A DNA stretch of 64,000 bases from Candidatus Dojkabacteria bacterium (GCA_026415655.1 JAOAGR010000004.1:67236-131235); one strand, 5' to 3'. Counted from the first letter of the stretch, positions 1 through 32,171 are shown. Program-made: numbers and translations. Notes: generated by a model from the letters alone, not told the origin.

Positions 1-86
1 CTTTTTGATATTTCTTGTGAATCTAACCCACTATTGATGTCTACATCTAATTCTTTTATTACATCTGTTATTTCTTTATGGTGCAT
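1..86 (-). CDS. Partial CDS (N-terminal 28 aa; the rest lies off the left edge). P-type cation-transporting ATPase N-terminal domain: MHHKEITDVIKELDVDINSGLDSQEISK.
   Basis: Manual translation of the minus strand from the ATG at 86-84. The motif resembles the Cation_ATPase_N domain (..EV...L.....GLS..E...R) of P2-type ATPases. Confidence 0.45.
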   Translation of the reverse strand, partial: MHHKEITDVIKELDVDINSGLDSQEISK

Positions 87-296
87 CAATAATATTATTA
101 GATTATTGATGAGAATATACAAATTTATATTTAGAAAAATATAGTTTTCTTATTTAGTTTTATTGTCTAATATGAATAGAAAAAATCTAAATAAATAATA
201 TACAAAAACAATACTTACCTTGCTGAATGTAATTAAATGCAGTCAGAATTAGATGGATATTTATGCGAAATAATAAGCTCTTATAAAATAAATAAT

Positions 297-641
297 TTAA
301 AATATGTCGAAATCAAATATATCATCTAAAAATCCGTCTTTTTTCTTTTGGTGGGGTGGATGATTGTGGGGGTATTGTTGATTGCCTTGATAGTTTTGTC
401 GATAAGATTCATGATCGTCGTCATCGTCATTGTAATAGTGATGGTTTTGAGATGTTGGAGATGAAGAGAATGGTACGTTATTATTCATTCTGATACCATT
501 TATTTCATCTCTGTAAGCTTGTAAAATCTTTTCTATTTCACCCTTATCTAAGACCACAGTCCCACAATTTGGACAATAATCTATTATGATATCGTATTTT
601 TCTACCTGTCTTAGATCACTTCCGCATTTTGGACATTTCAT
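297..641 (-). CDS. Zinc-ribbon protein (zf-TFIIB-like, CPKCG...CPNCG) with an Asp/His/Gln-rich low-complexity C-terminal tail.
   Basis: Two CxxC pairs in the first 30 aa (MKCPKCGSDLRQVEKYDIIIDYCPNCGTVVLDKGEIEKIL). The tail includes DDDDDHESYRQ...HNHPPHQ. Confidence 0.6.
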   Translation of the reverse strand: MKCPKCGSDLRQVEKYDIIIDYCPNCGTVVLDKGEIEKILQAYRDEINGIRMNNNVPFSSSPTSQNHHYYNDDDDDHESYRQNYQGNQQYPHNHPPHQKKKDGFLDDIFDFDIF

Positions 642-676
642 AACTGAATATTTAGTATTATGATGTTACAGTATTC

Positions 677-949
677 CTAACGATAAGTAGCAGAGTTTAT
701 TTTATCTTCTGACATTGCTGGCGGTTTTGGGCCATCAGATTGTTCAAAATCTGAGCTAAATATATGTTTTTTTACATTTGGATCATTTGTATCGGGACCT
801 AATACACCTGTCTCTGTGTATATCATATTGCCGGTTTTATGATCACTGTGAAAAAATAAAAAATATACAACAACTCCAATTATTATAAGAAGTAGCCCAA
901 TAATTATCCCAATTAAATATCTTGGATTTATATTTTGTAAACTTGACAT
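677..949 (-). CDS. Small single-pass membrane protein, hypothetical.
   Basis: 90-aa ORF with a hydrophobic N-terminal segment (LIGIIIGLLLIIIGVVVYFLFF). Directly downstream of the 693-aa gene on the same strand. Confidence 0.45.
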   Translation of the reverse strand: MSSLQNINPRYLIGIIIGLLLIIIGVVVYFLFFHSDHKTGNMIYTETGVLGPDTNDPNVKKHIFSSDFEQSDGPKPPAMSEDKINSATYR

Positions 950-954
950 ATCTT

Positions 955-3036
955 TTAATGATTCAGGTTAAATAATTTATAATACCATTGCACCCAGGAT
1001 GGTCTACCTGGTGGTGTCAGATCATGATTAACTTTTTCACAGAAATCACATGATTCATGATTATATCCAGCAAGACCCAAATTTGGGTTTGTATTTAATG
1101 TAAGATTACTATATTCAATTGGTATACAATCAAGGCTAGCAGTAGTGCAATTTGGATTAATGTCACCAAATCTTGTTATATACCTCTGTCCCAGTGGTAA
1201 GTTTACCCTATTCCCATTGACATATCCATCAACAAAATAACTATTAACAGGCAATATATAAGCGATGCGAATTGTAAATACAGATTGGGTCCAGGGACAA
1301 TTATTTTGTTCTGGTGTGCAATATGCATGCATCCTAAGAACACCACTTCCCGGTGATGTCTCAGTAACATTACCAATAGGATTGTATACCAAAAACTGGT
1401 ATCTGAAATCACTAGCCCCATGTGCCCACCATTCGGATGGCGCTCTATTACCTACTAGAGATGGACCGCGATTTATTTCTGTAGCATTTAATGGTTTGTG
1501 ACATCTAAACTCATCTATCAAGTCGGGATCATAAAATGGATAGTATTGGTTATCTGCATTAAGTCTTATTAATCCGATGTTTTCTTGCCTTGATTCCCAG
1601 CAGTCTGTATTTGATGGAGGAGTTATAAGATTACCATGGTCCAGCCAACCACCAGTACGGATTATTCCACAAGTTTCAGGTCTATTTTTGTCTTGACATA
1701 CTCTAAATTCACCATAACCAGAATGAAATCTTGTTGCAGCACCAAAAGCATGCATCTCTAGGTTGTGTATTTGTACCCTAAAGTCAGTTACACAATATCC
1801 ATTGTTGCATGGTTGATCACGTCTTACTATCCAGACATATCCTTCGTGTTTTATATCATTTTCCATTCTTTTTTCTCTTATGTATTGTTCGTTACTTTCA
1901 GTCATTGTTCTTGCTGGAAATGTTTGCCATGGATGAGATATACCTTGACCGGGTCGACCAAACCATGTACCAGGTTCTCCAAATATATCGTTTACATATG
2001 TTGGATCATCACCATGAAAATGATCATAATGACATTTTGCGATTGGATTTACTAAGCTATGCCATTTTGTAGGATCATGTTCATCTTCTCTACAGGGTCT
2101 ATCATATTCGCCTAGTAGTGCCCTTCGTCTTAGTTCATTTAAAATATCTAATCTGATACCCACTTCAGGATTATTATTTCTACCTGGTCCAAAGCCACCG
2201 CTTGGGGTTAAGTTAATATTTATATTACTTGATGTATCTGTCGGTGTGGGTGTATTAGTATTAGTGCTTGTTGGAGTAAATGTTGGACTGGATGTGGGAG
2301 TATTGGTAAAAGATGGAGATGGGGATCTTGTTGGGTTTGGTGTAGATGTATTTGTTGGTGATAAAGTGGGTGTCGGTGAGGAGACATTTGAATTCGAAAA
2401 AATTTCTATATAAGGTGCATTTTCTAATTTTGTTGCAGGGTATTTTCGAGCGAATGGAGAGTCAGAACTACCTTTAATAATTATACTTAGTTTATTAGTA
2501 CTACCATATTTTGATAGATACTCGCGCACAACATTTGTAATCTCATATTTGTACGTTTTTCTTCTCTCCCATTTTATATCTTCCTCTACGCTAACAAACG
2601 ATGTTGTTAGCTTTCGAGTAGATGGTTTTGTGTTTTGATTATTAATATCGTATTGTGTAAAGTCTCTACTGTCTTCAAGATAAATATCAAATTTTGTATA
2701 AATCCATTCCTCTCTCTCTGCAAAAAATACTAAAAATGCCTTGTTTACATTATTCTGATTGATTAGATTATCAGAATATGTAATTAGTCCGAGATATGAG
2801 TTTTCTAAATTTTGTCCTGTACCAACCCATAATTCCCTATCAAAAATATTAAAATATTCGCCATCTTCATTAGAGATGTCATTATTAGATCTTGGCTTAA
2901 AAGATATGTTTGATGGACCAGTTGCAGTGGATTGAGCTACAGATATAGACATGTTCGGCCGAAACTGCGCAATCGTTATAGCGATTGTCAAAATTGTGAA
3001 TATTTTGAGAAAAGAAATAATATTATTTTTTAACAT
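955..3036 (-). CDS. Secreted or anchored 693-aa protein. It has an N-terminal signal/anchor, an N-terminal domain, a Pro/Thr/Ser-rich linker and a C-terminal roughly 400-aa Cys/His/Trp-rich domain of unknown function.
   Basis: Long ORF in about 25% GC DNA. Linker TPTPTLSPTNTSTPNPTRSPSPSFTNTPTSSPTFTPTSTNTNTPTPTDTSS. About 20 Cys after the linker, plus HYDHFHGDDP. Confidence 0.7.
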   Translation of the reverse strand: MLKNNIISFLKIFTILTIAITIAQFRPNMSISVAQSTATGPSNISFKPRSNNDISNEDGEYFNIFDRELWVGTGQNLENSYLGLITYSDNLINQNNVNKAFLVFFAEREEWIYTKFDIYLEDSRDFTQYDINNQNTKPSTRKLTTSFVSVEEDIKWERRKTYKYEITNVVREYLSKYGSTNKLSIIIKGSSDSPFARKYPATKLENAPYIEIFSNSNVSSPTPTLSPTNTSTPNPTRSPSPSFTNTPTSSPTFTPTSTNTNTPTPTDTSSNININLTPSGGFGPGRNNNPEVGIRLDILNELRRRALLGEYDRPCREDEHDPTKWHSLVNPIAKCHYDHFHGDDPTYVNDIFGEPGTWFGRPGQGISHPWQTFPARTMTESNEQYIREKRMENDIKHEGYVWIVRRDQPCNNGYCVTDFRVQIHNLEMHAFGAATRFHSGYGEFRVCQDKNRPETCGIIRTGGWLDHGNLITPPSNTDCWESRQENIGLIRLNADNQYYPFYDPDLIDEFRCHKPLNATEINRGPSLVGNRAPSEWWAHGASDFRYQFLVYNPIGNVTETSPGSGVLRMHAYCTPEQNNCPWTQSVFTIRIAYILPVNSYFVDGYVNGNRVNLPLGQRYITRFGDINPNCTTASLDCIPIEYSNLTLNTNPNLGLAGYNHESCDFCEKVNHDLTPPGRPSWVQWYYKLFNLNH

Positions 3037-3111
3037 AATTCATTTAACATTATATTTTTCAGATTTAATTTTATTTGTCAATGGTTTATTTTTTCATATA
3101 TACTTAACAAC

Positions 3112-3510
3112 ATGTTTAAATATTTATTTTTACTACTAAATATTATTTGTGTTGCGATATATTCTTATCATTTTTATCAAGTATCTAACTTAGAATTTTT
3201 TGGTTTATTTTCTGCTTTTTGGTATTTGATTATTCTTTGCTTTAATTTGATAGTTTATGTTGCTTTAGCTAATAACAAATTTAATAAGTCAGAATATTTT
3301 CTATATTATTTTATTGTTTTAATTTTTGTACAATTATTATTCTATCGAACAGTTGATATTTTAATATTTTATATGCTCTTGTTTTCTTGTGGATTAGGGG
3401 GTTTAATAACTCTTAGTATTAAAAAAGTAAGGCAAATAAATATTCTACCTTATGGGTTGATAATCATTTTATCTATGAACTATTATTTATTTATCTACTT
3501 AACTTATTAA
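3112..3510 (+). CDS. Hypothetical polytopic membrane protein in the very AT-rich block.
   Basis: 132-aa ORF, I/L/F/Y-rich. A long open frame is unlikely by chance in about 18% GC DNA, where stop codons are frequent. Confidence 0.35.
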   Translation: MFKYLFLLLNIICVAIYSYHFYQVSNLEFFGLFSAFWYLIILCFNLIVYVALANNKFNKSEYFLYYFIVLIFVQLLFYRTVDILIFYMLLFSCGLGGLITLSIKKVRQINILPYGLIIILSMNYYLFIYLTY

Positions 3511-3527
3511 ATTGGTCTAATCCCGAA

Positions 3528-4034
3528 TTGTCTTTTCTAATATATTCATATGATTTTTATATTGCAATATCGGTTATTGTATTAATTATCATAATGTTTT
3601 ACTCAATTATTAATAAGAGGTACTATTTAATTTACAAGCCATTTATTTTGATTATAGTTTTTGTTTTTACGACATATATTATTAATAACGTTGGAACAAG
3701 AACCTATACTTTTATTGATTTGTCACCATTAGTATTTATTTTTCAGTTTTTTGTTACTTTTTTAATTTATCTTATTTCTTTTGTCTATACGGAATTTTGT
3801 ACTAACATGAATGTAGATAGATATTTAGTTAAATTTACTGAGAATTTATTCTTTACTATATATGTATTATTTTCATTTTATTTTGTTAGAGAGGATAATT
3901 TTCTTATTGATTTATTCTATATGCCCATAACGAAAATTGACTCTATTATATTTTATATTGGACTAATAATACTTATTTTGGTTGTTTGTTTTATTGTTGT
4001 AAAGAATTTTTTCAATTTAAAGAATGTTAATTAG
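3528..4034 (+). CDS. Hypothetical polytopic membrane protein in the very AT-rich block.
   Basis: 168-aa ORF with multiple hydrophobic segments. Confidence 0.4.
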   Translation: MSFLIYSYDFYIAISVIVLIIIMFYSIINKRYYLIYKPFILIIVFVFTTYIINNVGTRTYTFIDLSPLVFIFQFFVTFLIYLISFVYTEFCTNMNVDRYLVKFTENLFFTIYVLFSFYFVREDNFLIDLFYMPITKIDSIIFYIGLIILILVVCFIVVKNFFNLKNVN

Positions 4035-4372
4035 AAATTGTTCTAATTTAATTTTTATTTTAAAAGTCTTGTGATACATTATAAAGATTTTATGCTGTTG
4101 TTAAATTAACTCTTTATATATATTTTGTAAAAGAGATAGTTTTTTTATTGATTTACCCTACACTTATATATATGATTGATTCATTCATAGTTTATATGTT
4201 GTTAATATTTTTGTTAGTTTTTTAAATTGTAGTAGAGGATTTTTTTATATATAAATAAAAAAGTATATATATGTACTAAATTTTTTATTGGGCAAATGAG
4301 TAAGTAAAATTTTTTTAAGTTATAATAAATTTCATAATTTGAAATTCATTATAGTATCATATATATTAAAGA

Positions 4373-5128
4373 GTGGGTCTTTTTAAGTTCTTATATTGGT
4401 TATTTTATATATTTCCGATTATTTTAGCTTTTATTTTCACTTGGCCAGTGTCTGATGGACAGTCTATCATTTTTCATTTTTATCCGATGAGCGGTATCAC
4501 AATTCTTCCTTTTTCATCTCTTGTTATTTGGATAAATCTTCTCTTATCTAAGATTCTTTATAATCTTAATGTTGAAAATTATAAAGATTATATAAAATAT
4601 TTTATCTTTTCACCCCTACTCACGAATATTTTTATCATTATTTTTCCTGTTTTGGGATTTGATAACAAAATCTGGTTAACAACGATTCTAATAAATTTAT
4701 TATTGATAGCTATTTTTAGCCTAATTTATATTTTGCTATATCTTCGTGGATTAAAACAATACATCGGCGGTACTTTATTCACAATTTATATTATGTTATT
4801 TGTATTTTTTTTCACATTTATATCTATGGACTACGTCATAGTTATTTTCTTCGAATGGAGTTACTTTATAGTTCTTTTAGTTTTAGTTTTTTATTTAGCC
4901 TATGTTATGGATAATAAGTTGCCTCTAGTGTTATTGATTTTATATATTATATTTTATTTATTATTGATTATAAGTTCGCTTGGTTCAAATTTTGATTATG
5001 AGTTGCTTAATTTTCCACGTAAGATCTTAGTTGGGATTTTGATTATTTTATATATTCAAACTATTCTTTTATGCAATATTAAAAATATGGTTATGATGAT
5101 AATTAATTATATAATTTCAGGTGCATAG
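4373..5128 (+). CDS. Hypothetical polytopic membrane protein, paralog A of the 5620..6546 product.
   Basis: 251 aa. Shares blocks with its neighbour: YKDYIKYFIFSPLLTN / YYDITRFFVFSVLLTN, TTILINLLLIAIFSLIYIL / TMIIINMLLISMFYICYIVL, and EWSYFIVLLVLVFYLA / EWILVITFSALIFFLA. Confidence 0.55.
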   Translation: MGLFKFLYWLFYIFPIILAFIFTWPVSDGQSIIFHFYPMSGITILPFSSLVIWINLLLSKILYNLNVENYKDYIKYFIFSPLLTNIFIIIFPVLGFDNKIWLTTILINLLLIAIFSLIYILLYLRGLKQYIGGTLFTIYIMLFVFFFTFISMDYVIVIFFEWSYFIVLLVLVFYLAYVMDNKLPLVLLILYIIFYLLLIISSLGSNFDYELLNFPRKILVGILIILYIQTILLCNIKNMVMMIINYIISGA

Positions 5129-5619
5129 TATATTATTTCTTTTTTGATTACTTCAATCTTAATTGCGTCAAAACCTGATCCTAATTTTATGATGGCAGTA
5201 GGAATGATGTTGGCACATTTATTTCCAGTACTGGTAATTATTTTTTAATATTTTTAGTGCATTTTAATCTTGTATATTGGTACTCTAAAAAGTAGATAAA
5301 AATAATGATTCAAGTCTATCATATATGATTTTAACTGTTCTGACAAGGAATACATATTTTGTTTAATAAATATTACTTAATAGATAATTTAGCTTTTATT
5401 ATTTAGATACTCTTCTATATTTTAGGATATGTTGCTTAAATTTCTGATCTCAAGTTAATAGTTAAAATATTAAAAAGTTTTTTGTTGTATTAATAATATC
5501 TATTTTGATTATTTGTTTTATTGTTATAAAACATATCTTAACTTTGAAAAATAGTTGATGGTACTAGAAAATGTCTATTAATTTCAAATTTAGATTAGAT
5601 TTGGTAACATAAATATGTT

Positions 5620-6546
5620 ATGAGGTTGTTAAAACTATATTACTTTTTGTTTCTTATATTTGTTTTGTTTTTGGGATTTGTTTCAAGTGATAATTTGGAG
5701 CTAATTCATAAAAATGAATATTTTATCTTTAACTTTCCTACTAATAACGTTTTTGTAACTTTAATTCCCATATTAAAATCTCTATTTGTAGTTAATCTTA
5801 TATCGTCCTTAATACTGTTTAAAAGATCTAAAGAAAAATATTATGATATAACGAGATTTTTTGTTTTTTCTGTATTATTGACTAATCCATTATTTCTGTT
5901 TACAAACCATAAGTATGTGCTGACTATGATAATAATTAATATGCTTTTAATATCCATGTTTTATATTTGTTATATTGTGTTAGATACACTACATATAGAT
6001 TATAAACTGGGTTTAATTATGTTTATCATATTTTTACTGTTACTAGTTTCTTCTTCCATATTGATTTTTATAGATTACAATTTAGTAAATCATTTAGAGT
6101 GGATATTGGTTATTACATTTAGTGCTTTAATTTTCTTTCTTGCGTTATTCACAAAAAATTATATAACTTTGTTATGTTTATCTGTAGGTCTATTGATCAA
6201 GATAATAAGTTATGTATTGTTGAATATTCAGAATTTATCTGTGGATAGGTTTTTTATACAATTTCCTGACTTTTATTTCTATGATATTGTTCTAATTTCA
6301 ATGATTGGTTTCTTTTTTACATTTAACCAATCTCAAGTAAAAGTGTTAAGATCAATTAATGATATTATTGCAGGTTTAGCATATTCTATTGTTGCTGCAG
6401 TAATTTCAGTATATTTTTTAGTCAGTTTAGACAGATCTCATGCGTTTGTTATTTTTATGTTACCAATATTATTTGTATTTGTGACAGTATTTGATTACTT
6501 TTTATTTTTATATTCTAGTGTCTTATATTTATTAGATGATAAATAA
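5620..6546 (+). CDS. Hypothetical polytopic membrane protein, paralog B of the 4373..5128 product.
   Basis: 308 aa. Collinear similarity to ORF 4373..5128 (see that entry). Confidence 0.55.
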   Translation: MRLLKLYYFLFLIFVLFLGFVSSDNLELIHKNEYFIFNFPTNNVFVTLIPILKSLFVVNLISSLILFKRSKEKYYDITRFFVFSVLLTNPLFLFTNHKYVLTMIIINMLLISMFYICYIVLDTLHIDYKLGLIMFIIFLLLLVSSSILIFIDYNLVNHLEWILVITFSALIFFLALFTKNYITLLCLSVGLLIKIISYVLLNIQNLSVDRFFIQFPDFYFYDIVLISMIGFFFTFNQSQVKVLRSINDIIAGLAYSIVAAVISVYFLVSLDRSHAFVIFMLPILFVFVTVFDYFLFLYSSVLYLLDDK

Positions 6547-7066
6547 TCATTATTTTGTTTGGCAATAAAATGATGAATATATTTTCAGACATTAATTGAA
6601 TATGAATATGCGAATATTAATGAATATAAAATCGTATTTGTATAATGATTTAGTTCTATTCTGATATTAGTACACTTTTAAATTATAAAAAAATAAAATT
6701 ACAAGTTTATTGACAATTAATAAAGTAAGAATTTATCATTGAACATTAATTTTTTCATTTTACTTTCGGAGTGGCATTTGGGTAGAATCCTTTATTCTGG
6801 AATGTTGTATACCATATCTTGAAGATTGACATTTATGAGAAGTATTCTCAATTATTTTATATTAGTAATTATTAGGTTAATAATTTTTATTTATACTTTA
6901 ATATTAATGATTCCTTTTATCCTGATAAAAACTTAAAACTAATTATAAAAATAAATTTTTACTCAAATAAGCGTTTTCAAAAGACTGAAAGAATATTATA
7001 AATATTTTATTTTACTTAAAAGAAATAATTATTATTTTTTAATTCTTTGCCGTAAGAGTTTAAAAA

Positions 7067-7110
7067 TGGAGCAGGGAAACCGGAATCGAACTGGTGCTTG
7101 TCCTTCTTAA
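7067..7110 (-). pseudogene. Orphan tRNA 3' half (T-arm plus acceptor 3' strand plus CCA). It has no 5' half, so it is a tRNA remnant or an att-site remnant.
   Basis: Minus-strand reading ...CACCAGTTCGATTCCGGTTTCCCTGCTCCA. Near-identical T-arm to the tRNA-Gly 520 bp away, but a different acceptor stem. No matching 5' acceptor (GCAGGGAA) was found. Confidence 0.4.
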
Positions 7111-7632
7111 CTATTTTTATTTTGATTCAAACTGAATAACTTGAAATCCATGTTTGTCTAATTGTTCTGAAAACCAAAAGTTAAGTCTTTGTTTTTGAGT
7201 ACGTAATTAACAGCAACTTCAATTTTTCTTCCTGTGTATGTTTTTATCGTTATTCCATTCTTCCAAAATCAAGGCGTCAGCATCGTTTATTTCAAAATTA
7301 GCAAGATGCAGTTCAAGTTTTTTATGTCGGACATCATTTTCTCAAAATATCCTGACCATCCTTTTTGAGAACTGACTCCATATTTAGGCTATATTTAGAT
7401 GATTAGATTATTTGTGCTTAATAGTCTATTTATAATTTTTAATTTTCATTATAGTTTGCAGGAAGCTACCTAATTCATCTCGTGAGCAGTATTGATTTGC
7501 ATATAACAAAATGTTACTGCACTGTCATGTTTTTTATTTTTTATCAGAGATAATTGTTTAAATCTTATCGTATTTCTAAGTTAGGATATAGCCATTCCCA
7601 AAATGATCATACAACCTCAAAAACTTTTATTG

Positions 7633-7706
7633 TGGAGCGGGTAACCGGAATCGAACCGGTGACTTATCCTTGGGAAGGACACGTTTTACCCCTAAACTAT
7701 ACCCGC
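7633..7706 (-). tRNA. tRNA-Gly, anticodon CCC, CCA encoded.
   Basis: Manual fold: GCGGGTA-TA-GTTT-AGGGGTA-AAAC-G-TGTCC-TTCCCAA-GGATA-AGTC-ACCGG-TTCGATT-CCGGT-TACCCGC-T-CCA. All stems pair, and the total is 74 nt. Confidence 0.85.
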
Positions 7707-7820
7707 TTATTATCTTAAATTATAACAGATACAAATTACTGTGCATTCCAAATATTGTGAGCTAGACAAATTAGATTACTTAATCATTGTTTATATTTAG
7801 CAGAATAAATACTCCATAAT

Positions 7821-9056
7821 CTATATAAGGGTAAACATACCGTCCTTATAAATTATCCTTTCACTGCCATCTTTGAGTGTCGCTGTTACTGTACGATTTG
7901 ATGTACTAATTATATCTGTATGTATTGCAGATTCATTGAATCCCATGTTATTTATGAGTTCTTCATCACTGAATTTTTCTTGATCTTTTATTGCATCTCT
8001 ATAAGCCTGACCGAGTGCTATATGAGTATTTCCATATTCACCACCGAAATTTTCATCAAATAAAGTATTTGCCATTATTCGATCTATACGGGAGAACCTT
8101 TTGTCTGTTAAGCTGAACTCGCCTACTCGTCTAGCGCCTTCATCTGTATTTAACATTGCTTCTAATGCATGTTTATTTGTTTCAGCATCAAAATCTATGA
8201 CTTTTCCATCCTCAAAAACTAATTTTATACCTTTAATAATAAATCCATCTCTGTAGAGTGGTTGATTAAATCTGATCCAACCATTTGTATATCTAGCATC
8301 AGGTGATGTAAATATTTCAAAACTAGGTAAATTTCGACCACTTCCTCCGACGAATTGTCTGTTTTCACCTAATACTATTTCCAAATCAACATCATCGGCT
8401 TTTATATGTAATTTTTCTATATTAAATGAATTAATAGTACTTGTTATTTGATGAATTTTGCTGAATGTATCTTTATGCTTTGTAATTGGGTCGTCCTCGT
8501 CAAGATAACAGGCTTTTATGACTTGATCCCAATATTCTTCTAGAGTCATACCAGCTGCTTCTGCCATAGCTGGAGTTGGATAATCTGTAAGAACCCATGT
8601 TAGTTTGCCAGCATATTCTTTGGCATTACGCATTTCCATGTATTTTCTCCAGACTTTGGTTCTTTGTGCAAGTTTTTTTGGATCTATGTCGGCATAATAA
8701 TTGTGATCATGGGTAGATAAAAGAAGTACTACATGATCTATAGTATCAATTCTTGCCTGTATATATTTTTCAGGAAAAAAGTTAAGTTGCTCTTCGTTTG
8801 CTAGTTCGTAAAAAAGTGCAGTCTCATCCCTGTCTCTTTGTAATTCTGCTGGTAGATAACACAAAATCATATGCCCCCCAGATCGTAATATTGCTTCTTG
8901 AATGGGTAATAACATAGGTTTAGCATATTCATTCATCATGACGTAAACTACTTCGCCAGGTTTTATTCCTTCGCCAGAATTAAGGCAAAAATTTATTAGG
9001 GTATTTGCGAAATTTTTTAATATTTTTTCACTTGGAGTATATAGATTTGAAAACAT
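7821..9056 (-). CDS. M29-family aminopeptidase (AmpS/PepS/aminopeptidase T-like).
   Basis: Blocks match thermophilic aminopeptidase T: KLTWVLTDYPTPAMAEAAGMTL, MLNTDEGARRVGEFSLTD, and NTLFDENFGGEYGNTHIALG. Confidence 0.85.
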   Translation of the reverse strand: MFSNLYTPSEKILKNFANTLINFCLNSGEGIKPGEVVYVMMNEYAKPMLLPIQEAILRSGGHMILCYLPAELQRDRDETALFYELANEEQLNFFPEKYIQARIDTIDHVVLLLSTHDHNYYADIDPKKLAQRTKVWRKYMEMRNAKEYAGKLTWVLTDYPTPAMAEAAGMTLEEYWDQVIKACYLDEDDPITKHKDTFSKIHQITSTINSFNIEKLHIKADDVDLEIVLGENRQFVGGSGRNLPSFEIFTSPDARYTNGWIRFNQPLYRDGFIIKGIKLVFEDGKVIDFDAETNKHALEAMLNTDEGARRVGEFSLTDKRFSRIDRIMANTLFDENFGGEYGNTHIALGQAYRDAIKDQEKFSDEELINNMGFNESAIHTDIISTSNRTVTATLKDGSERIIYKDGMFTLI

Positions 9057-9100
9057 AATTTAATTATTCTATCAATTTTGTGGGATTAATCAATATAAGA

Positions 9101-10284: not shown

Positions 10285-11355
10285 ATGAAAATTGCCGTAG
10301 CCTTGTCAGGAGGAGTGGATAGTGCTGTAACGGCTTATATTTTAAAATCACAAGGACATGATGTTATTGGTATATTCATGAAAAATTGGTCTGATGATTA
10401 TGGACTAAAAGGCGATTGTCCTTGGGAAAAGGATCAAAATGATGCAATGCAAGTTTGTGAATTTTTGCAGATTCCCTTTTATACTTTTAATTTTGAAAGA
10501 GAATATAGAGAAAGAGTTATTAATTATTTTTTTGAAGAATATAAAAATGGGCGTACTCCAAATCCTGATGTGTTCTGTAATTCTGAGATCAAATTTGATT
10601 TATTTCTAAGGAAATCTATTGAAAGGTTCGATGTGGACAAGATTGCTACTGGGCATTATGCCCGTGTTATTGATCAAAAAGAATATTTTGCATTGTTTAG
10701 AGGAGATGATTTATCAAAAGATCAATCTTATTTTTTGTGTAGACTTACACAAAATGAACTTTCAAAATCGATTTTTCCGTTGGGCGAAATGACAAAGAAG
10801 GAAGTACGTAAGATAGCATCAGATATAGGATTACCTGTTGCAACCAAGAAAGATAGTCAAGGAATATGTTTTGTTGGAAAAATAAATGTAAGAGAGTTTT
10901 TACGTAGTGAGCTAGGAATGAAAGATGGTGATATTGTTGATATAGAAACGAATAAGATTCTTGGCCGACATCATGGATTGTGGTTTTATACAATAGGACA
11001 ACGCGAAGGACTTGGGCTTGGAGGAGGACCTTGGTATGTAGTAAAAAAAGATTTGGATTCCAATATTGTTTTTGTTGCTAGAGGAAGAAATAATCCATTT
11101 TTATATAAAGATTTTGTGATTGTAGAGGATCTAATATGGACTTATGAAAAAAATGTAAATAAACTTGATAATTTAGATAACTTGTCTATTACTTTAAGAT
11201 ATCAACAAAGCCCAATACGTTGTATTTCTTATGAATGGAAAGATAAAGATTTAGTTTTGCATCTAGAAAACAAAGCATTTGCTGTTTCACCCGGACAAGT
11301 AGGATGTCTTATGTCTGGTGATGAGGTTATTGGTAGTGGTATTATTAAAGCTTAA
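10285..11355 (+). CDS. mnmA: tRNA 2-thiouridine(34) synthase MnmA.
   Basis: PP-loop N-terminus MKIAVALSGGVDSAV. C-terminal PGQ..V.Y.GDEVIGSGII is typical of MnmA/TrmU. Confidence 0.9.
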   Translation: MKIAVALSGGVDSAVTAYILKSQGHDVIGIFMKNWSDDYGLKGDCPWEKDQNDAMQVCEFLQIPFYTFNFEREYRERVINYFFEEYKNGRTPNPDVFCNSEIKFDLFLRKSIERFDVDKIATGHYARVIDQKEYFALFRGDDLSKDQSYFLCRLTQNELSKSIFPLGEMTKKEVRKIASDIGLPVATKKDSQGICFVGKINVREFLRSELGMKDGDIVDIETNKILGRHHGLWFYTIGQREGLGLGGGPWYVVKKDLDSNIVFVARGRNNPFLYKDFVIVEDLIWTYEKNVNKLDNLDNLSITLRYQQSPIRCISYEWKDKDLVLHLENKAFAVSPGQVGCLMSGDEVIGSGIIKA

Positions 11356-12369
11356 AATATCTTTTTTAAGTTTTCTGATCCAAGTAATTTGCCTCTTCGC
11401 ATATTGATGCTCTTTATACTTTAATTCTTGAAGTAAACTGTCTACAATCTGTTTATTAGTGTTTTCATTTTTTAATACTTTATAAATTTTAAGAAAATAT
11501 TTATATTCGTAGGAAAGTTTTTCTAGCCAATCTTTAGATACATTTGATTTAAGCAAGTATTCTATTTCATAAAATGTCTCATCACAAAATCTTTTATCTA
11601 CTACTTCATCAAGTTTCTGATAATAAATAGTTCTATTTTTTGGCAAGAGTAAAATAACGAAATAGTCATCATTGCCTAAATTTTGTTTTTTATAATATAC
11701 CTCTACAAATTTATCACCATATTTTTTAATCAATTTATAGTATTTAATTAATCTTCGTGGATTTTTTATATTCAAAATGATTTTGTGTTTAGAGATAAAA
11801 CTTTCGACAACTTTCATTGCAATATCTAGCTCAACATCAATCATCTCGGCATTTGAACTGTCTGGTTCGAATTCGGTATTAAACAATAAGTGATATGCGT
11901 AGTAAATAGTGCCACCTACAATTAGGGTATTTGTAAATTTAAATTTATTTTTGATCCTATAAAAATCATCAGTAAATTCTTTTACGGAATAAGTTTCTCC
12001 TGGGTATCTGATATCAAACAGATAATTTTTGATTTGATCTGAAGTTTTTGTTTGGGGGTTAAAATTTTTTATTAAATCAATTAATTGTTCCCAATTGATA
12101 TCAAAATTTGTTTTATTCTTAGTTATTAATTGTATTTCTATATTTTCTAGTGAAAGATTTTGATTTATTGTATTGCTATCGACTATTGATAAAGTTTCTC
12201 CATTTAATACAATTTGAGAATTGAATTGCGGTTTGTTGGTCAGCTTATTAAGATTTTTATAAATTTGTATTGCGTCACAGTTAAATATTGGTAGATCAAA
12301 CTGTCTAGCTATAAAAAAAGCCAAATTTGTTTTTCCTGAAGAAGTTGGGCCAAGTATAAATATATTCAT
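11287..12369 (-). CDS. miaA: tRNA dimethylallyltransferase MiaA-like (360 aa, extended).
   Basis: N-terminus IFILGPTSSGKTNLAFFIARQFDLPIFNCDAIQIYK matches the MiaA P-loop/DS.Q.Y motif. Its 3' end overlaps the mnmA 3' end by 69 nt, convergently. Confidence 0.7.
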   Translation of the reverse strand: MNIFILGPTSSGKTNLAFFIARQFDLPIFNCDAIQIYKNLNKLTNKPQFNSQIVLNGETLSIVDSNTINQNLSLENIEIQLITKNKTNFDINWEQLIDLIKNFNPQTKTSDQIKNYLFDIRYPGETYSVKEFTDDFYRIKNKFKFTNTLIVGGTIYYAYHLLFNTEFEPDSSNAEMIDVELDIAMKVVESFISKHKIILNIKNPRRLIKYYKLIKKYGDKFVEVYYKKQNLGNDDYFVILLLPKNRTIYYQKLDEVVDKRFCDETFYEIEYLLKSNVSKDWLEKLSYEYKYFLKIYKVLKNENTNKQIVDSLLQELKYKEHQYAKRQITWIRKLKKDILSFNNTTTNNLITRHKTSYLSG

Positions 12370-17638: not shown

Positions 17639-19015
17639 ATGTCAAAAATCACTGCCCCGCTTTTAAATTTAAAAAAGAAAATTTTTCATATTTTACATAT
17701 TTCTTTTTTTCATAGTGAAAAAAATAATTATCATCCTTATTTTTTAAGACATTTTTCTATATTAATTTTGGCTATTTTTATTCTGTTAATTAATTTTTTC
17801 ATGTTTAATAATGATCGTTCATCGAATTTCTCCTCTGTGGCTTTTGCTGCAAATTATGACTCAGCAGATATTGTTGAATTGACAAACCAAAAACGTAGAG
17901 AGTATGGATTAGACGAATTAAAAACTAATCAAGTATTAAATTTAGTAGCTAGAGCAAAGGCAAACGATCTTTTACAAAGACAATATTGGAGTCACTATGA
18001 TCCTGAGGGTAGGAATATCAGATATTTTCTAGAAGAATTTAATTATACTTTTTCTGTCGCTGGTGAAAATCTTGCTAAAGATTTTTATAGCCATATAGAT
18101 GTAGTGAATGCGTGGATGAACAGTCCATCACATAGACAAAATATATTGGAACCCCGTTATAGAGAGATTGGAGTTGCTGTTGTCGAAGGAAATTTTTTGG
18201 GAAAATATACAAATCTTGTAGTACAGGTGTTTGCATCACCGACATCCGAATCTGATCTGGATTTAAATAATCTTATTAAAATAATCCTTCCACAAGATAA
18301 TCACATACAAAATACACCATTTATTTATGTACAAGGATATGCCGAGAATGCCAAAACAGTTGAGGTTTTTAAAAATAACACTAAACTTGGAGAGTTGCCC
18401 GTAGTTGATAAATATTTTAGTGAGACATTTGATCTTGAGGATGGTATTCATAGGATATTTGCTGCTAAGTCACAAGATTCTGGACAAATATTATCTGAAC
18501 CTAAGCAGGTTATTATTGATACAACACCGCCATTTATACAATCGATTTATATTTATAAATTGGATGATAATCATAATTTATTATTTTTAAATGCGTCTGA
18601 AATGTTAAAAGAACTAGTTTTTGGTTCCTTTACTCCTCAGTATGATGATGTTACACAAAGTTATTATTTTATTCTAAAAGAAGATGGCTTAAAAAATGGT
18701 ATTGATATAAAACTTATTGATATAGCCGGTAATGAATCTAACCAAACTTACCAAAAAGATCAGATAAAAAACGCATCTGTTATACCATCATCTATTTATA
18801 ATAAGATAAAAGAACAAATTAATATTAATCAAAGATTTAATATTTTTTCTAATGAACAAAAACTTAATATGTTTTCTATATTTATCATTGGAAGTGTTAT
18901 GACGTTTGATATTATCTATATCATAAGACGCATGATTGAACGCAAATCCATTAATGAGTACTTTGCTTTAATTTTGGTTATACCATTGGTACTTATAGGG
19001 ATTTTTGTTATCTAA
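17639..19015 (+). CDS. CAP/SCP/PR-1-domain protein with an N-terminal and a C-terminal membrane segment.
   Basis: CAP motifs YWSHYDPEG, GENLAKDF, VNAWMNSPSHRQNIL, and YREIGVAV. Confidence 0.7.
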   Translation: MSKITAPLLNLKKKIFHILHISFFHSEKNNYHPYFLRHFSILILAIFILLINFFMFNNDRSSNFSSVAFAANYDSADIVELTNQKRREYGLDELKTNQVLNLVARAKANDLLQRQYWSHYDPEGRNIRYFLEEFNYTFSVAGENLAKDFYSHIDVVNAWMNSPSHRQNILEPRYREIGVAVVEGNFLGKYTNLVVQVFASPTSESDLDLNNLIKIILPQDNHIQNTPFIYVQGYAENAKTVEVFKNNTKLGELPVVDKYFSETFDLEDGIHRIFAAKSQDSGQILSEPKQVIIDTTPPFIQSIYIYKLDDNHNLLFLNASEMLKELVFGSFTPQYDDVTQSYYFILKEDGLKNGIDIKLIDIAGNESNQTYQKDQIKNASVIPSSIYNKIKEQININQRFNIFSNEQKLNMFSIFIIGSVMTFDIIYIIRRMIERKSINEYFALILVIPLVLIGIFVI

Positions 19016-19046
19016 AAAGTCTTTGTTTTAGCAGTGTTATAATTGA

Positions 19047-20486
19047 TTGATGTTTAGATTTTTTATAATTGCGCTTTGTTTATTTATTTCTTTTTTTGTT
19101 AATTTTAGTACTACATATGCTCATTCAATACCATTTGTAGTACATGAGTTCAGTTTTGATTATCAGGAAAAAAAGCTTTTTATAGATTATAAATTAAGGA
19201 TCGATCCTATTATAGTAGATAAGATATTCGAAAAAATCGATTACAATCGTAATGAATTATTAGATCAAGATGATGCACAATTATTCTTTCGCAATGATTT
19301 TTTGTCAAATATTGAAGGTAGTATGAATGACAAGATTTTTTCTTATGAATTTATAGAATCTTTTGAAGTAAAAAATAAAAAAGATCTTAAGTCATTTGAT
19401 GATTATTGGGGATTTAGAATAGAAGTAAAAGATACGTTTTATCAAAATGAAAACTTGATTAAATTTAAGTCAACATTAAGATTTCTTCCTGAAGATGAAT
19501 ATGGTGATTCTTATTATTATGATGATAATTTGTTTGATAATAAACATTTTTCAGTTGTTGTTCTTCAATCAGATTATGAAAATATCGATGTACTAAGCTA
19601 TAAAGTCCGTTTTGCCAAGAAAGATAGTTCACTGACTCAAAATCAAAATAAAAAAGAAAATACAAATACTCAAAATAGTTTCTCAAACATTAATTTATTA
19701 GATATAAAATCATATGCGGAAAGTATAATAAATTATGTTAGAACCATAGACATCACATCACCTTTTGTATTTTTTACCTTCGCAGGACTTTTGATTTTAG
19801 CAGGAGCTTTGCATTCGCTTACTCCCGGACATGGCAAAACATTGATTTCTACCATTTTTATCTCAAGAAAAAATCGCAATTTTATTGATCTCATAATTCT
19901 TGCCTTGAGCTTAACATTTTCACATACTTTGATCGTATTTATCGTTGGTTTATCTGTCTTTTTATTACAAAAGGTTGAGTATCTAAATATGATAGTTAGA
20001 CAATTTGAAATATTAGGTTATGTTTTGTTTATTTTTGTTGGCTTGTATCTTATTTTTCAAGGTTTACAAAATAGAAAACACTATTTATATCACGCAAAAT
20101 CGTGTTATGCAGAAGATAATCATCATGTTAGGCATCAACGTGATAATCATCACCATCACCACTTCAATCTCTCAAGAAATTTTCGTATTAGAAATAGGCG
20201 AGATATCTTGTGGGCAGGATTTGTTGGTGGTATAACGCCTTGTATCAATGCTACTGTAGTGTTTACGTTTTTTCTAATTCAAGGGGAGACATTTTTGGGG
20301 ATTATTAGTATTCTTCTCTACTCTATCGGTATGGCAACAGGTATAATTCTGATAGGAACAACAGTTTTTTATGGATTTAAAAAGCTCAATCTTGAAAGTA
20401 AACTGGGTGATCGGCTTGAATATATTCTTCCTATTTGGGGAGGATTAATCATTGTTTTGCTTGGCTTATATTATATTTTTACCTGA
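19047..20486 (+). CDS. RcnA/NicO-family nickel/cobalt efflux-type membrane protein with a His-rich loop.
   Basis: GALHSLTPGHGKT (compare RcnA GALHGLEPGHSKT), GGITPC (compare RcnA GGLIPCP), and the loop HHVRHQRDNHHHHHF. Confidence 0.6.
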   Translation: MMFRFFIIALCLFISFFVNFSTTYAHSIPFVVHEFSFDYQEKKLFIDYKLRIDPIIVDKIFEKIDYNRNELLDQDDAQLFFRNDFLSNIEGSMNDKIFSYEFIESFEVKNKKDLKSFDDYWGFRIEVKDTFYQNENLIKFKSTLRFLPEDEYGDSYYYDDNLFDNKHFSVVVLQSDYENIDVLSYKVRFAKKDSSLTQNQNKKENTNTQNSFSNINLLDIKSYAESIINYVRTIDITSPFVFFTFAGLLILAGALHSLTPGHGKTLISTIFISRKNRNFIDLIILALSLTFSHTLIVFIVGLSVFLLQKVEYLNMIVRQFEILGYVLFIFVGLYLIFQGLQNRKHYLYHAKSCYAEDNHHVRHQRDNHHHHHFNLSRNFRIRNRRDILWAGFVGGITPCINATVVFTFFLIQGETFLGIISILLYSIGMATGIILIGTTVFYGFKKLNLESKLGDRLEYILPIWGGLIIVLLGLYYIFT

Positions 20487-28811: not shown

Positions 28812-30275
28812 ATGACAAGAACAATAAAAAAACTAAACTGGTGGATACAAAGTAAGATCAGTTCGCTTCTTTATCCAATAGATGACTCATTGACTTATAT
28901 AGGTGTTACTGGTACAGATGGAAAAACAACTACATGTAATTTTTTATATGAAATAGCCAAAAAACATGGATTTGTAGTTTTGATGATAACTACTGTGGGA
29001 GCTAACTTCTATTTTAATGGTAAAGAAGAAGTTGTAGATTTTAAGTTACATTCAACATCTTATATTTCTTTTGTATTTAAGCATTTTATTAAAAATATAA
29101 AAAATGGAAAATTCATTGAGGCATTAACACCTACTTATAAAAAGTATGATAAATATACTGCAGAATATCACCGCACTACTCCACTGGCTTATGAGATCAG
29201 AAAAATGATAAGAAAATATGTTGACCGCGGCGCAAACATGATTATTTTAGAATCTACATCCCACGCATTGGATCAATATCGTATTGCTGATATTAAATTT
29301 GACGTTGCAGTTTATACAAATATTACACACGAACATCTTGATTATCATGGTACCTATGAGAATTATGTAAAAGCCAAAGCTAGACTAATGACTATGTTAA
29401 AAGATGATGGTTTTGTCATTTTAAATAAATCAGATCAGAGTTTTGATTTTCTCATATCATATGCCAATAAATATAAAATTCGTCATGTAGATTATCAGTT
29501 TGATGAATATCAAGATCTCGATCCAAAAAATTTCTGGATTAATTTTTATGAAAATTATACTGTTATATCAAAGAATAAAGATAAAAAAGCTAAAGATAAT
29601 ATAAATGTTAGTTTAAATATCGAAGGAAAATACAATATTTTCAATGCAGGAGCAGCAGCAACAGCATTTTATTATTATTTCGATAAAAAGCCTGAATATA
29701 TATCAAGTGGACTTTCGCATCTAAAAACAATATCGGGTCGTATGAATATCCTATCGAAGAATCCAGACATAATAGTTGATTTTGCACATACACCAAACGC
29801 CATGAAAGTTATTCTTCAAGAAATAAAACAGAGAACTAAAGGGAAATTGTGGGTAGTGTTTGGATGTGCCGGCCTTAGGGATGTGGAAAAAAGATACTTG
29901 ATGGGTGAGATTGCGGGAAAATATGCTGATTGTATACTGGTTACTGCAGAGGATCCACGTACTGAACGACTAGAAGATATTAATGATCAAATCATTAAAA
30001 ATGGAATATTAAAAAATAAAGATATTAGATACAGGATACTGAGATACAGAGTAAATATGGATCTTTCTACTGATATTGGTGAAAAATTGGTTATTAGATT
30101 CGATAAAGATGATATCTCTTCACGTACCGATGCCATAAAACTTGCTATTACAAAGGCAGAGAAGAATGATACTGTACTTATATTAGGCAAAGGTCATGAA
30201 AAGACGATGTGTTTTGGAGAAAAAGAGATACCTTATAATGATATAGAATTTGTTAGTCAATTAATAAAAAATTAG
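28812..30275 (+). CDS. murE: Mur-ligase-family enzyme, MurE-like.
   Basis: ATP-binding motif GVTGTDGKTTT. DFAHTPNAM resembles the MurE DYAHTPDAL signature. Typical Mur-ligase length. Confidence 0.55.
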   Translation: MTRTIKKLNWWIQSKISSLLYPIDDSLTYIGVTGTDGKTTTCNFLYEIAKKHGFVVLMITTVGANFYFNGKEEVVDFKLHSTSYISFVFKHFIKNIKNGKFIEALTPTYKKYDKYTAEYHRTTPLAYEIRKMIRKYVDRGANMIILESTSHALDQYRIADIKFDVAVYTNITHEHLDYHGTYENYVKAKARLMTMLKDDGFVILNKSDQSFDFLISYANKYKIRHVDYQFDEYQDLDPKNFWINFYENYTVISKNKDKKAKDNINVSLNIEGKYNIFNAGAAATAFYYYFDKKPEYISSGLSHLKTISGRMNILSKNPDIIVDFAHTPNAMKVILQEIKQRTKGKLWVVFGCAGLRDVEKRYLMGEIAGKYADCILVTAEDPRTERLEDINDQIIKNGILKNKDIRYRILRYRVNMDLSTDIGEKLVIRFDKDDISSRTDAIKLAITKAEKNDTVLILGKGHEKTMCFGEKEIPYNDIEFVSQLIKN

Positions 30276-30623
30276 TTTATTGATTAATATTTACATTTCA
30301 ATGTTTTAAATCTATTTTAATTAACTAGAGTTTTACGTAGAATATTAGTTAGATAGTAATTACACATTAGAAAATAAGATTAATCATAGAATTTATATAA
30401 ATAAAGGAGTGATAATTATTCCCTAATTACAGTATTTATTAAAGTTAGGAAAATAGAAAATACATTACAAATTTTAATATATTATTTTTTTTAAATTTAG
30501 AGACATTTCTTACTTTTATAGATTGATTATTTAAAAATAAGAATATAGTTTATTATCTATTTTTAAATTCTGATAAATAATCTAATATTGATTAGGGCAT
30601 TTTCCATAAACAAGGTGTTAATC

Positions 30624-32171
30624 TTATTCATACATCCACTCATATTCATTATTATCATTTTCCACCGGATCTATATAAAATAAATCATCATCTGTTGTAT
30701 TAGTTGTTTGGTTAAATAAGTCTTGAAATTCTGCAATTATCTCCTTAATAATATCAACAATTGATATGGCGTTTGATGGGACTAGTATTTCTTCTTTTTC
30801 TATCTTTATTTCATAATCTAAGGAGATATTAAATGAAAGTTCTTTTACTTCGTTGCCGACTTCAGATAAATCGTTGATATATTTTCTTCCTTCATCATTT
30901 ACATTTACTGTAATATCCATTTTAGTTATCATATTAATCGACGGTAAAACATACATATATACATCAAATTCTATACCTTTTGCTATGTCAGTGATTGTTT
31001 TCCTTATTTCGTCTGCATTTTCTTTTGCATTTTCACGTAGCTGATTTATTGCCTCCTCATTACATAATAAACCTATTTCATTTTCACAATCCTTTTTTGT
31101 CGAATGTAAGCTTCTGGTTTGGATAAGTATTTCCGGTATACTGTTGATGTAATCTGCAATATAATTTGCTAATTTTTGGTTATCAATTTTGAGCCTATAT
31201 TTAAGATTTGATAATCCATTTACATTTTCTCTACCTAGATATTCGATTTGTGCATAGTCTGCAACATTGGATGTTACTTTATTATTAAACTCTCTGAGTA
31301 AGATAGATGCAAATTCACCATACCAATCTTCATTTTCAAAAAGAGGCTGTTCCTGATATTCATCATCCAGCAATGATTTATAGTACTCTTCTATCTCCTT
31401 TGGATCAATTTTTATAAACGTATTTAAATACTTTTCAAACATACCTAAACTCTCTTCAATATCAAAAAATTCTTTTACTTCATCTGGTATATACAATTTA
31501 AAATATGTAGCTGCATTCGTATCTTTGATATTGTATATGTTTGTCAACTTAACAGGATTAGAGTCAAAATCAAGATTAACTGCACCATACGACAGTTTAC
31601 CACCTAGAGCACTTTCACTTTTTGCTAACTGATCTGATAAATTATAAATTACTCTCGTTTTGAAACTGTTACTACCTCTTATTTCTTCAGCTTCATAATT
31701 AATCACATATTTGATACCGAAGTTTGTATTTGCGATCAATGATCCTTCAAATTTTTGTACATTTCTAGCTTTTCTCAAGAGTTCTGAATCCAACTCCTTA
31801 AAAGTTAAGGCATCCCTTACTATTTCTTCATGAGTTTTACCAAGATTATTTATTACAGGAATTTTCTCTGTTTCAATGAACTGATTATAAAAGGCTAATT
31901 CGTTAGCTTTGCCGCGATTTGCGCTGATTATGGCTAGACCGACTATACCTAATATTAACACTATTACAATTATTATCGTTAGTACAACAGATGCTATTAA
32001 AAATATATTTTTATTTTTTTTCACGTTTGTAACTGGTATGTTGTTTTGGGGATTTAGTTGATTGTTTTGTTGAGGTTGATTTGCTTCTGAATTGCTTATT
32101 ATATTTCTATCTGTATTGTCTGATATATTGTTTGAATTGTTTAATGTATTATCCATATCAATATTTACCAA
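30624..32171 (-). CDS. Hypothetical type-II membrane protein (N/Q-rich N-terminus, TM helix, and a roughly 420-aa extracellular domain).
   Basis: 515-aa ORF. N-terminal NNSNNISDNTDRNIISNSEANQPQQNNQLNPQNN, then TM segment IFLIASVVLTIIIVIVLILGIVGLAII. Confidence 0.55.
   Translation of the reverse strand: MVNIDMDNTLNNSNNISDNTDRNIISNSEANQPQQNNQLNPQNNIPVTNVKKNKNIFLIASVVLTIIIVIVLILGIVGLAIISANRGKANELAFYNQFIETEKIPVINNLGKTHEEIVRDALTFKELDSELLRKARNVQKFEGSLIANTNFGIKYVINYEAEEIRGSNSFKTRVIYNLSDQLAKSESALGGKLSYGAVNLDFDSNPVKLTNIYNIKDTNAATYFKLYIPDEVKEFFDIEESLGMFEKYLNTFIKIDPKEIEEYYKSLLDDEYQEQPLFENEDWYGEFASILLREFNNKVTSNVADYAQIEYLGRENVNGLSNLKYRLKIDNQKLANYIADYINSIPEILIQTRSLHSTKKDCENEIGLLCNEEAINQLRENAKENADEIRKTITDIAKGIEFDVYMYVLPSINMITKMDITVNVNDEGRKYINDLSEVGNEVKELSFNISLDYEIKIEKEEILVPSNAISIVDIIKEIIAEFQDLFNQTTNTTDDDLFYIDPVENDNNEYEWMYE

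Follow-up and report, generated by a model that had tools for sequence, protein, structure and literature searches.

A strain-variable block of orphan membrane-protein genes beside tRNA-Gly(CCC) in a Candidatus Dojkabacteria genome is probably a small flexible genomic islet

The DNA analyzed here is a 64,000-nucleotide stretch from a Candidatus Dojkabacteria bacterium (GCA_026415655.1 JAOAGR010000004.1:67236-131235), referred to below as the window, and all positions are those of the whole window. Near its left end, between a gene for a secreted cysteine-rich protein and a gene for an M29 peptidase, lies a block very rich in adenine and thymine (AT) that encodes polytopic membrane proteins and runs up to a tRNA-Gly(CCC) gene. 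We regard the block as a probable flexible genomic islet of small size, located downstream of the tRNA gene, in which fast-evolving accessory membrane-protein genes duplicate and decay. The features of the block are as follows, with protein lengths in amino acids (aa).

3037..3111, no strand: divergent intergenic spacer of 75 bp, separating a secreted-protein gene on the minus strand (693 aa) from gene A
3112..3510, plus strand: open reading frame (ORF) A, 132 aa, N-terminal part of an AB-type membrane-protein gene, ended early by a 1-bp deletion
3480..4034, plus strand: B frame, C-terminal part of the AB-type gene, resuming the original frame right after the deletion
4062..7632, no strand: strain-variable segment, with an approximate left edge and a right edge exactly at the tRNA 3' end
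4091..4108, plus strand: six-codon stub ATG CTG TTG TTA AAT TAA, like the start of D and part of a 155-bp direct repeat
4122..4258, plus strand: remnant 1 of the 3' end of an AB-type gene, aligning to 3880-4025
4373..5128, plus strand: gene C, for a polytopic membrane protein of the C/D type (251 aa), stopping at TAG
4805..4812, plus strand: T8 tract within gene C, the only A/T run of at least 8 in the block
5478..5560, plus strand: remnant 2 of the 3' end of an AB-type gene, with 77% identity over 75 nt to 3951-4025, followed by spacer and then the start of D
5620..6546, plus strand: gene D, 308 aa, intact C/D-type paralog with ~10 predicted helices
6547..7066, no strand: AT-rich stretch without a long ORF; neither a six-frame Pfam search nor Rfam gave a match
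7067..7105, minus strand: orphan copy of the tRNA-Gly 3' half, an att-like (attachment-site-like) scar from the 3' strand of the anticodon stem to CCA
7106..7632, minus strand: decayed segment of 527 bp with a normal GC (guanine-plus-cytosine) content of ~0.3, holding broken minus-strand frames only
7633..7706, minus strand: tRNA-Gly(CCC), whose 3' end at 7633 is the right border of the strain-variable segment

The region 3037-7032 has a GC content of 0.213 against 0.328 in the rest of the window, which served as the control (window mean 32%), and is the lowest-GC 4-kb stretch of the window. An initial annotation made from the sequence alone had drawn the AT-rich block from 3.0 to 7.7 kb; the trough is real but stops near 7030, with GC back at 0.29-0.32 across 7030-7706. 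Four ORFs lie on the plus strand of the trough, namely A (3112-3510, 132 aa), B (3528-4034, 168 aa when opened at the TTG at 3528), C (4373-5128, 251 aa) and D (5620-6546, 308 aa). Their existence and their improbable length, both claimed at the outset, are borne out: stop-to-stop open frames in the block reach 312, 252, 203 and 157 codons, whereas dinucleotide-preserving shuffles of the block (n = 300) had longest frames of 80 ± 16 codons on average and of 177 at most. The count of four genes does not stand, since A and B are one. Runs of at least eight A/T are depleted in the block (1 observed versus 5.5 ± 2.2 in shuffles). The description of the products as I/L/F/Y-rich multi-transmembrane proteins holds as well, with F/I/L/Y/V/M/W making up 63-67% of residues, a grand average of hydropathy (GRAVY) of 1.2-1.4 and topology prediction giving ~9-10 helices per ~300 aa.

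Extreme AT-richness had been taken as a sign of an integrated island, and this part of the proposal fails on windowed GC and codon usage. GC content at third codon positions (GC3) of A-D is 0.16-0.24, within the range of 0.17-0.33 found in 40 other window genes, and the observed GC3 deviates from that expected by z values of only -0.1 to -2.1. The GC content expected for A-D from their amino-acid content and the window's own codon usage is 0.22-0.255, nearly the 0.20-0.244 observed. The trough is an effect of codon positions 1 and 2 in F/I/L/Y/N-rich proteins, to which AT-rich spacers are added. The genome's GC3 is already ~0.23, and within it the F/I/L/Y-rich composition of membrane proteins under weak constraint brings about the extreme AT-richness as a by-product; the low GC is therefore not evidence of foreign DNA.

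For the AB-type gene, comparison was possible with a sister species, a metagenome-assembled genome (MAG) labelled uncultured Candidatus Saccharibacteria (CAZDBO010000001, hereafter L006). L006 was the sole sister species in a scan of species-representative genomes, with an M29 peptidase of 95% protein identity and DNA of 77-80% identity to the window; the other relatives, at ~50% protein identity, are all Patescibacteria MAGs. In L006 the AB orthologue is a single intact ORF of 297 aa. Nucleotide alignment to it places a 1-bp deletion near 3479, outside any homopolymer run, and the B frame carries the homology on from there. A and B are thus one gene of ~300 aa, and all strains of the window's species have it in a split or pseudogenised form; the block accordingly holds three genes, not four. 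The synteny kept in L006 as one intact gene also speaks against counting the A/B part as an island. Between the window and L006, the ratio of nonsynonymous to synonymous substitution rates (dN/dS) is 0.34 for A and 0.28 for B, compared to 0.03-0.10 in four neighbours whose dS, ~1, is similar. AB is thus constrained, yet its protein evolves several times faster than those of its neighbours.

C and D are paralogs, as had been claimed, with 33% identity across 233 aa (E 5e-14, composition-adjusted), a dN of 0.64 and a dS of ~1.9. Their second codon positions are 65% identical against 40% by chance, whereas third positions are saturated (38% versus 34%). Conserved second and saturated third positions mark an old duplication under constraint, one at least as old as the species split and retained under selection for a hydrophobic protein. 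Polar positions are conserved between C and D, for example E72/Y74/D76, T88-N89-P90, D152-Y153 and E160-W161, which suggests more than inert filler. D is intact in the window. C was probably truncated by a nonsense mutation, as the frame past its TAG stays open to 5248 and is still alignable to D.

Such hydrophobic frames might be spurious, arising where AT-rich non-coding DNA lacks stops on one strand by chance. The lack of database homologues would agree with this, as would the lack of Shine-Dalgarno sequences, although the latter is uninformative because ordinary genes of the window also lack them. The idea is effectively refuted by frames of 312, 252 and 203 codons that were never reached in the 300 shuffles, by the C-D protein alignment, by the AB orthologue with its dN/dS of ~0.3, and by the depletion of homopolymer runs, as should be seen in coding sequence.

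Exact-protein look-ups led to conspecific Logan and ENA metagenome contigs with 99.9% identity to the window (L001-L005 and L085-L088). One of these, L003 (ENA ERZ3623746 NODE_41), represents a short-form strain. It does not differ from the window over positions 1 to ~4062 and matches it at 99.9% from 7633 on (99.8-99.9% identity outside the segment), with ~306-340 unrelated bp in place of the window's 3.5 kb. The sister species L006 is also without ~4062-7632, its AB gene being followed by ~330 bp and then directly by tRNA-Gly. Neither L003 nor L006 has C or D, the tRNA scar or the decayed segment, and homology resumes exactly at 7633, which by synteny supports the proposed tRNA-linked variable boundary. 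A low-stringency tblastn search for C/D remnants in the intergenic DNA of L003 and L006 gave AT-rich noise only; L003 retains a possible D-type start stub after B, which is our own reading of the alignment, given without statistics. Four short Logan contigs of the SRR277300xx series (L004, L005, L087 and L088) end inside the block, at 6268, 6534, 4980 and 4167, respectively, and such ends would fit mixed alleles or poor coverage of very AT-rich DNA.

Both allele forms sit at the same site, between B on the left and tRNA-Gly and the M29 peptidase gene on the right, and differ in content. In the right flank, 8 of the 10 single-nucleotide polymorphisms (SNPs) that separate L003 from the window across 11.4 kb fall within 7666-8136. 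As L003 and the window encode the same M29 protein, the six within the M29 gene are taken to be synonymous. In the left flank, zero differences over 4 kb are followed by 9 within 25 bp, a sharp break at ~4062. This flank pattern fits allele replacement by homologous recombination better than recent site-specific excision.

Among the long-form strains, 6 of the 7 variant sites in window positions 1-9100 lie inside the variable segment (binomial P = 0.016), and the same is true of all five differences between L001 and the window (P = 4.5e-4). Of the coding changes, one shifts the frame, one removes a start codon and one is missense; none is synonymous, as would be expected under relaxed constraint. 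The frameshift is a T7 instead of the T8 at 4805-4812 in three independent assemblies (L001, L002 and L087), which splits C into 155 + 100 aa and is the sole length polymorphism among long-form strains. The start codon of D is lost in L001 (ATG to ATC at 5622), and D carries V164A (6110) in both L001 and L002. Together with the AB frameshift and the TAG codon of C, these changes uphold the claim that the block is decaying.

The T8/T7 difference is also what would invite a contingency (phase-variable) locus, in which slippage in the T tract of C toggles a surface membrane protein within populations, and such a locus had been offered as one option in the initial annotation. Contingency loci with homopolymer tracts are known from the work of Moxon, and the block resembles them in having a frame-shifting T7/T8 difference inside a membrane-protein gene. 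It departs from them in having one short, mid-gene tract, no repeat enrichment, and a C gene already truncated by TAG relative to D. Neither D nor AB has such a tract, long A/T runs are depleted in the block, and the start-codon loss and the 1-bp deletion outside runs look like plain decay. With one tract to rest on, a contingency locus is very improbable.

Pieces of the genes also recur between them. A 155-bp direct repeat (3951-4105 and 5478-5633) that spans the 3' end of B, the spacer and a D-type start has 72-77% identity between its copies. Remnant 1 (4122-4258) gave a local alignment score of 46 versus 16.5 ± 2.4 in shuffles, and the alignments of both repeats of the B 3' end scored above all shuffles (0 of 500 reached them). 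Intergenic copies of the B 3' end and of a D-type start indicate that AB-type and C/D-type units were segmentally duplicated and then internally deleted.

At the right border, the tRNA-Gly(CCC) gene at 7633-7706 and the orphan 3' half at 7067-7105 are both present as first described. Positions 7067-7105 match 7633-7671 at 35-36 of 39 positions in direct orientation, as in an att-type repeat, and a 19-mer common to both copies occurs 2 times in the window versus 0.01 expected; the sequence of the tRNA-Gly 3' half is AAGGAYAAGTCACCGGTTCGATTCCGGTTACCCGCTCCA. The ~520 bp of decayed minus-strand frames reported between the two copies correspond to the 527-bp segment of broken frames. No further tRNA-like copy was found within 2900-7100, and none near the left junction at ~4062. 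The anticodon stem of tRNA-Gly(CCC) is polymorphic at 7666, with G-U in the window and L006 and G-C in L003 (11351-11424). The scar carries C as in L003, whereas the window tRNA and L006 carry T; an element origin of the current tRNA 3' half was considered and rests on this one base only.

Within the decayed segment, ~7150-7420 weakly resembles DUF3850 (PF12961), the sole family match in a six-frame Pfam scan of 6547-7640. The match reached 13.6 bits (E 0.078) in the raw frame and 20.6 bits (E 5e-4) after stitching by hand, both below the gathering threshold of 22.9 bits. We take PF12961 to be an ASCH/PUA-like family, and DUF3850 proteins are often phage-borne. The stitched pseudogene peptide had no PDB, phage or word-index match. 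The six-frame scan of 6547-7640 and scans of all ORFs showed no integrase, recombinase or other mobile-element gene or remnant. When viral contigs were scanned with tRNA 3'-half patterns, the T-arm pattern was found in 22 viral loci, which had nothing else in common with the window.

A tblastx match of 7151-7419 to a Gracilibacteria locus (L072) with two large serine recombinases and a tRNA-Met was rejected, as it was gone in composition-corrected tblastn. That locus (1181-4800 of a Gracilibacteria MAG in which UGA encodes Gly, code 25) has a pair of neighbouring genes for large serine-recombinase-like proteins that run into a tandem of two tRNA-Met genes, and itself looks like an integrative-element junction.

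These features raise the question of whether the whole variable segment is a decayed single mobile element, an integrative island or prophage that entered at tRNA-Gly with the membrane genes as cargo. Such an element would account for presence or absence between near-identical strains with a break exactly at the tRNA 3' end, for the direct repeat of the tRNA 3' half, for the possible DUF3850-like pseudogene, and for the lack of C/D homologues in the sister species. However, the repeats bracket only 7106-7632 and leave C and D outside, with no second repeat near the left junction; no integrase or recombinase remnant was found in six frames; and C and D do not differ from the host in GC3 or codon usage. 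At its left junction the segment breaks within duplicated sequence of the resident B gene and a D-type start, of which L003 has a possible stub after B, and scans of viral and metagenome contigs gave no relatives. We therefore regard a single mobile element as unlikely. The repeat pair with its 527-bp segment we read instead as a separate, old scar of a former element that may have used the tRNA-Gly 3' half as its attachment site, so that the att-like remnant does not belong to the membrane genes to which it had been tied.

The membrane proteins themselves have no recognizable relatives outside the lineage. D and L006-AB gave self-matches only in a word-indexed search of 5.8 billion clusters, and a C+D profile run exhaustively with HMMER over 1.84 billion representatives recovered only D and the two halves of C. 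Pfam, NCBIfam and PADLOC gave no match to A, B, C, D or L006-AB. Among PHROGs, only C had a match, weak and not common to D (phrog_24400, of unknown function, E 5.9e-4 over 49 residues). The C/D profile found no relatives among viral and metagenome contigs, and no further paralogs turned up anywhere, including assemblies that contain the organism. AB and C/D showed no relationship to each other by BLASTP, with an hhalign probability of 0.5%. Judged by these searches, AB-type and C/D-type proteins are two orphan families without homologues among ~15 billion proteins outside the lineage. The hypervariable family envisaged earlier reduces to two paralogs, C and D, and one unrelated gene, AB. AlphaFold2 predicted all-helical bundles of ~10 helices, with a predicted local distance difference test (pLDDT) of 50 for D and 46 for L006-AB.

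T-rich sequence readily encodes transmembrane-like peptides, and the genes might be young ones born de novo from T-rich non-coding DNA, or might evolve too fast to trace. Orphan status in exhaustive searches, extreme T-rich codon content and low-confidence structure predictions would all be in keeping with this, and there is a precedent in yeast, where de novo membrane proteins emerged from thymine-rich sequence (Vakirlis et al. 2020, PMC7005711). Our families share with the yeast proteins a T-rich coding strand, a transmembrane-dominated product and confinement to a narrow lineage. They differ in being older than the species split, in being under purifying selection and in having no syntenic non-coding precursor that could be aligned in L003 or L006. 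C and D retain 65% second-position identity at a dS of ~1.9, and AB is conserved across species at a dN/dS of ~0.3. The old divergence of C and D and the cross-species conservation of AB place the origin of both families before the species split, so that neither was born recently, and we consider this explanation improbable.

A wider version holds that AB- and C/D-type proteins are lineage-born from T-rich DNA, and continually reshaped by it, in a reduced genome of the candidate phyla radiation (CPR). We give this little credence, given that both families are older than the species split and that purifying selection acts on them. If it were true, the locus would be a snapshot of a full gene life cycle of birth, duplication and loss by slippage and deletion, and recombination-maintained presence/absence alleles might tune the envelope for host attachment or phage avoidance. 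It would then be a bacterial counterpart of the 'transmembrane-first' de novo emergence in yeast (PMC7005711).

We return to the flexible islet as the probable explanation. The locus would contain two unrelated, lineage-restricted families of integral membrane proteins of ~300 aa and ~9-10 helices, with the AB-type gene frameshifted and the C/D-type present as two old paralogs. These would be accessory, dispensable genes in birth-and-death, evolving several times faster than their neighbours. Segment duplications would have left the copies of the B 3' end, the spacer and the D-type start, and the causes of the later inactivation would be internal deletions, loss of a start codon, a nonsense codon and 1-bp indels, of which one lies in the only T8 run. 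Strains would swap alleles that contain or lack C/D by homologous recombination through the conserved flanks, formed by B on the left side and by tRNA-Gly and the M29 peptidase gene on the right side. The tRNA 3'-half scar and the 527-bp segment would come from a separate past integration, by chance inside the variable segment. The explanation draws on the observed anatomy, paralogy, orphan status, presence/absence polymorphism, composition control and decay mutations; the recombination mechanism and the direction of gain or loss are what we infer. The block proteins presumably are, or were, functional envelope components. Of the original choice between a decayed island and a variable locus, variability, the tRNA boundary, the att-type repeat and decay are upheld, while foreign origin argued from AT content is lost, no integrase was found, and the scar is not linked to the genes.

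Several points weigh against this explanation. With two alleles and one sister species only, loss in L003 and L006 and import into the window's lineage would both be compatible with the data. The B 3'-end copies are ~72-77% identical in nucleotides while synonymous sites of C and D are saturated, and this mismatch in age means that a single simultaneous cassette duplication would fit only if gene conversion or further rounds of duplication are assumed. In principle, the T7/T8 difference might stem from an assembly error in one source. The resemblance to DUF3850, sub-threshold and improved by hand-stitching, would serve as a lead only. The AlphaFold2 models are too low in confidence for a statement on fold or function.

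The kind of locus is already known, as tRNA-adjacent flexible islets, orphan CPR envelope proteins and integration scars have all been met before; it is real and fairly ordinary. What is new here is the documentation of two orphan protein families and, with it, of orphan membrane proteins gained and lost between strains of an uncultured Patescibacteria lineage. The case also carries a caution, in that a sharp GC trough beside a tRNA gene in a very AT-rich genome can stem wholly from the composition of hydrophobic orphan proteins, and a GC3 control tells this effect apart from horizontal transfer. If it is true that the proteins mediate the episymbiont's interactions with hosts or phages, the presence/absence alleles would be a convenient natural experiment.

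The block is neighboured by genes for the secreted Cys-rich protein, the M29 peptidase, CobW and MnmA. The secreted protein (955-3036, minus strand, 693 aa) is encoded divergently from gene A across the 75-bp spacer. It has an N-terminal hydrophobic segment, a Pro/Thr-rich linker (~residues 219-297) and a Cys/His-rich C-terminal domain of ~400 aa, and is strongly conserved in L006 (88% aa identity, dN/dS 0.065). It had no Pfam, NCBIfam or PADLOC match, its only PHROG match fell on the low-complexity Pro/Thr linker, and a scan of metagenome contigs gave no relatives. In the spacer, a TATACT box resembling a -10 element ends 8 nt upstream of the gene A start codon (ATG). A promoter and terminator scan gave 59 hits versus 47 ± 8 in shuffles, with no excess, and the sole predicted 'terminator' is the T-arm of the tRNA remnant. 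Ordinary genes of the window have no Shine-Dalgarno sequence, and in many of them a TATAAT-like box precedes the start by 5-10 nt (e.g., 10285, 19047, 33069 and, on the minus strand, 25240), which suggests frequent leaderless or Shine-Dalgarno-independent initiation in this genome. The absence of ribosome-binding sites before A-D is therefore uninformative.

On the other side of the tRNA gene, the spacer to the M29 gene is 114 bp in the window and 322 bp in L006, where it holds a 65-aa Asp/Ser/Gly-rich ORF (L006 11317-11514). Farther right, a convergent pair of mnmA-like (10285-11355, plus strand) and miaA/IPPT-like (11287-12369, minus strand) genes overlap by 69 bp at their 3' ends (11287-11355), with the same calls in related contigs. 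The only other 1-kb windows with GC <0.25 are 18501-19500, at a junction of a CAP-domain gene and a NicO-like membrane gene, and 30001-31000, with the spacer 30276-30623. To the left of the window's start, conspecific contigs (L003 18282-21236; L001 1-1877) carry a P-type cation ATPase gene, a helicase/restriction-endonuclease gene (Pfam ResIII/DEAD/RE_endonuc) and then an N6_N4 methyltransferase gene, the latter two being a probable type III restriction-modification pair.

Among known systems, Wzy/O-antigen-polymerase-like and EpsG-like genes encode AT-rich, highly divergent polytopic membrane proteins in surface-glycan clusters. The block genes resemble them in a GC content well below that of the genome, ~10 predicted transmembrane helices, almost no homologues and strain-level variation. 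However, the block proteins are ~300 aa compared to 350-450 aa; Wzy, EpsG and O-antigen-ligase models in Pfam and NCBIfam gave no match at E <= 1, and no glycosyltransferase, flippase or sugar-nucleotide genes are found next to them. A second comparison is with integrative elements that target tRNA genes, for which Williams in 2002 (Nucleic Acids Res 30:866) reportedly described identity blocks that start in the anticodon loop and extend to the tRNA 3' end. The window shows a similar ~40-nt direct repeat of the tRNA 3' half downstream of the intact tRNA, with the extent that is classic for elements integrating at the anticodon loop, bracketing DNA that looks non-native, but differs in having no integrase, only 527 bp of pseudogene debris bracketed, and the membrane genes outside the repeats.

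Finally, flexible genomic islands are strain-variable accessory loci between conserved flanks, as in the concept of additive and replacement flexible genomic islands of Rodriguez-Valera. Unlike these, the present locus is only 3.5 kb in its variable part, holds orphan genes only, mostly decaying, and has no glycosyltransferases, transporters or defence genes of known families. It is like flexible genomic islands at tRNA genes in its fixed tRNA-adjacent site, its content that varies between near-identical strains, its membrane or envelope proteins and the cluster of SNPs in its flank.

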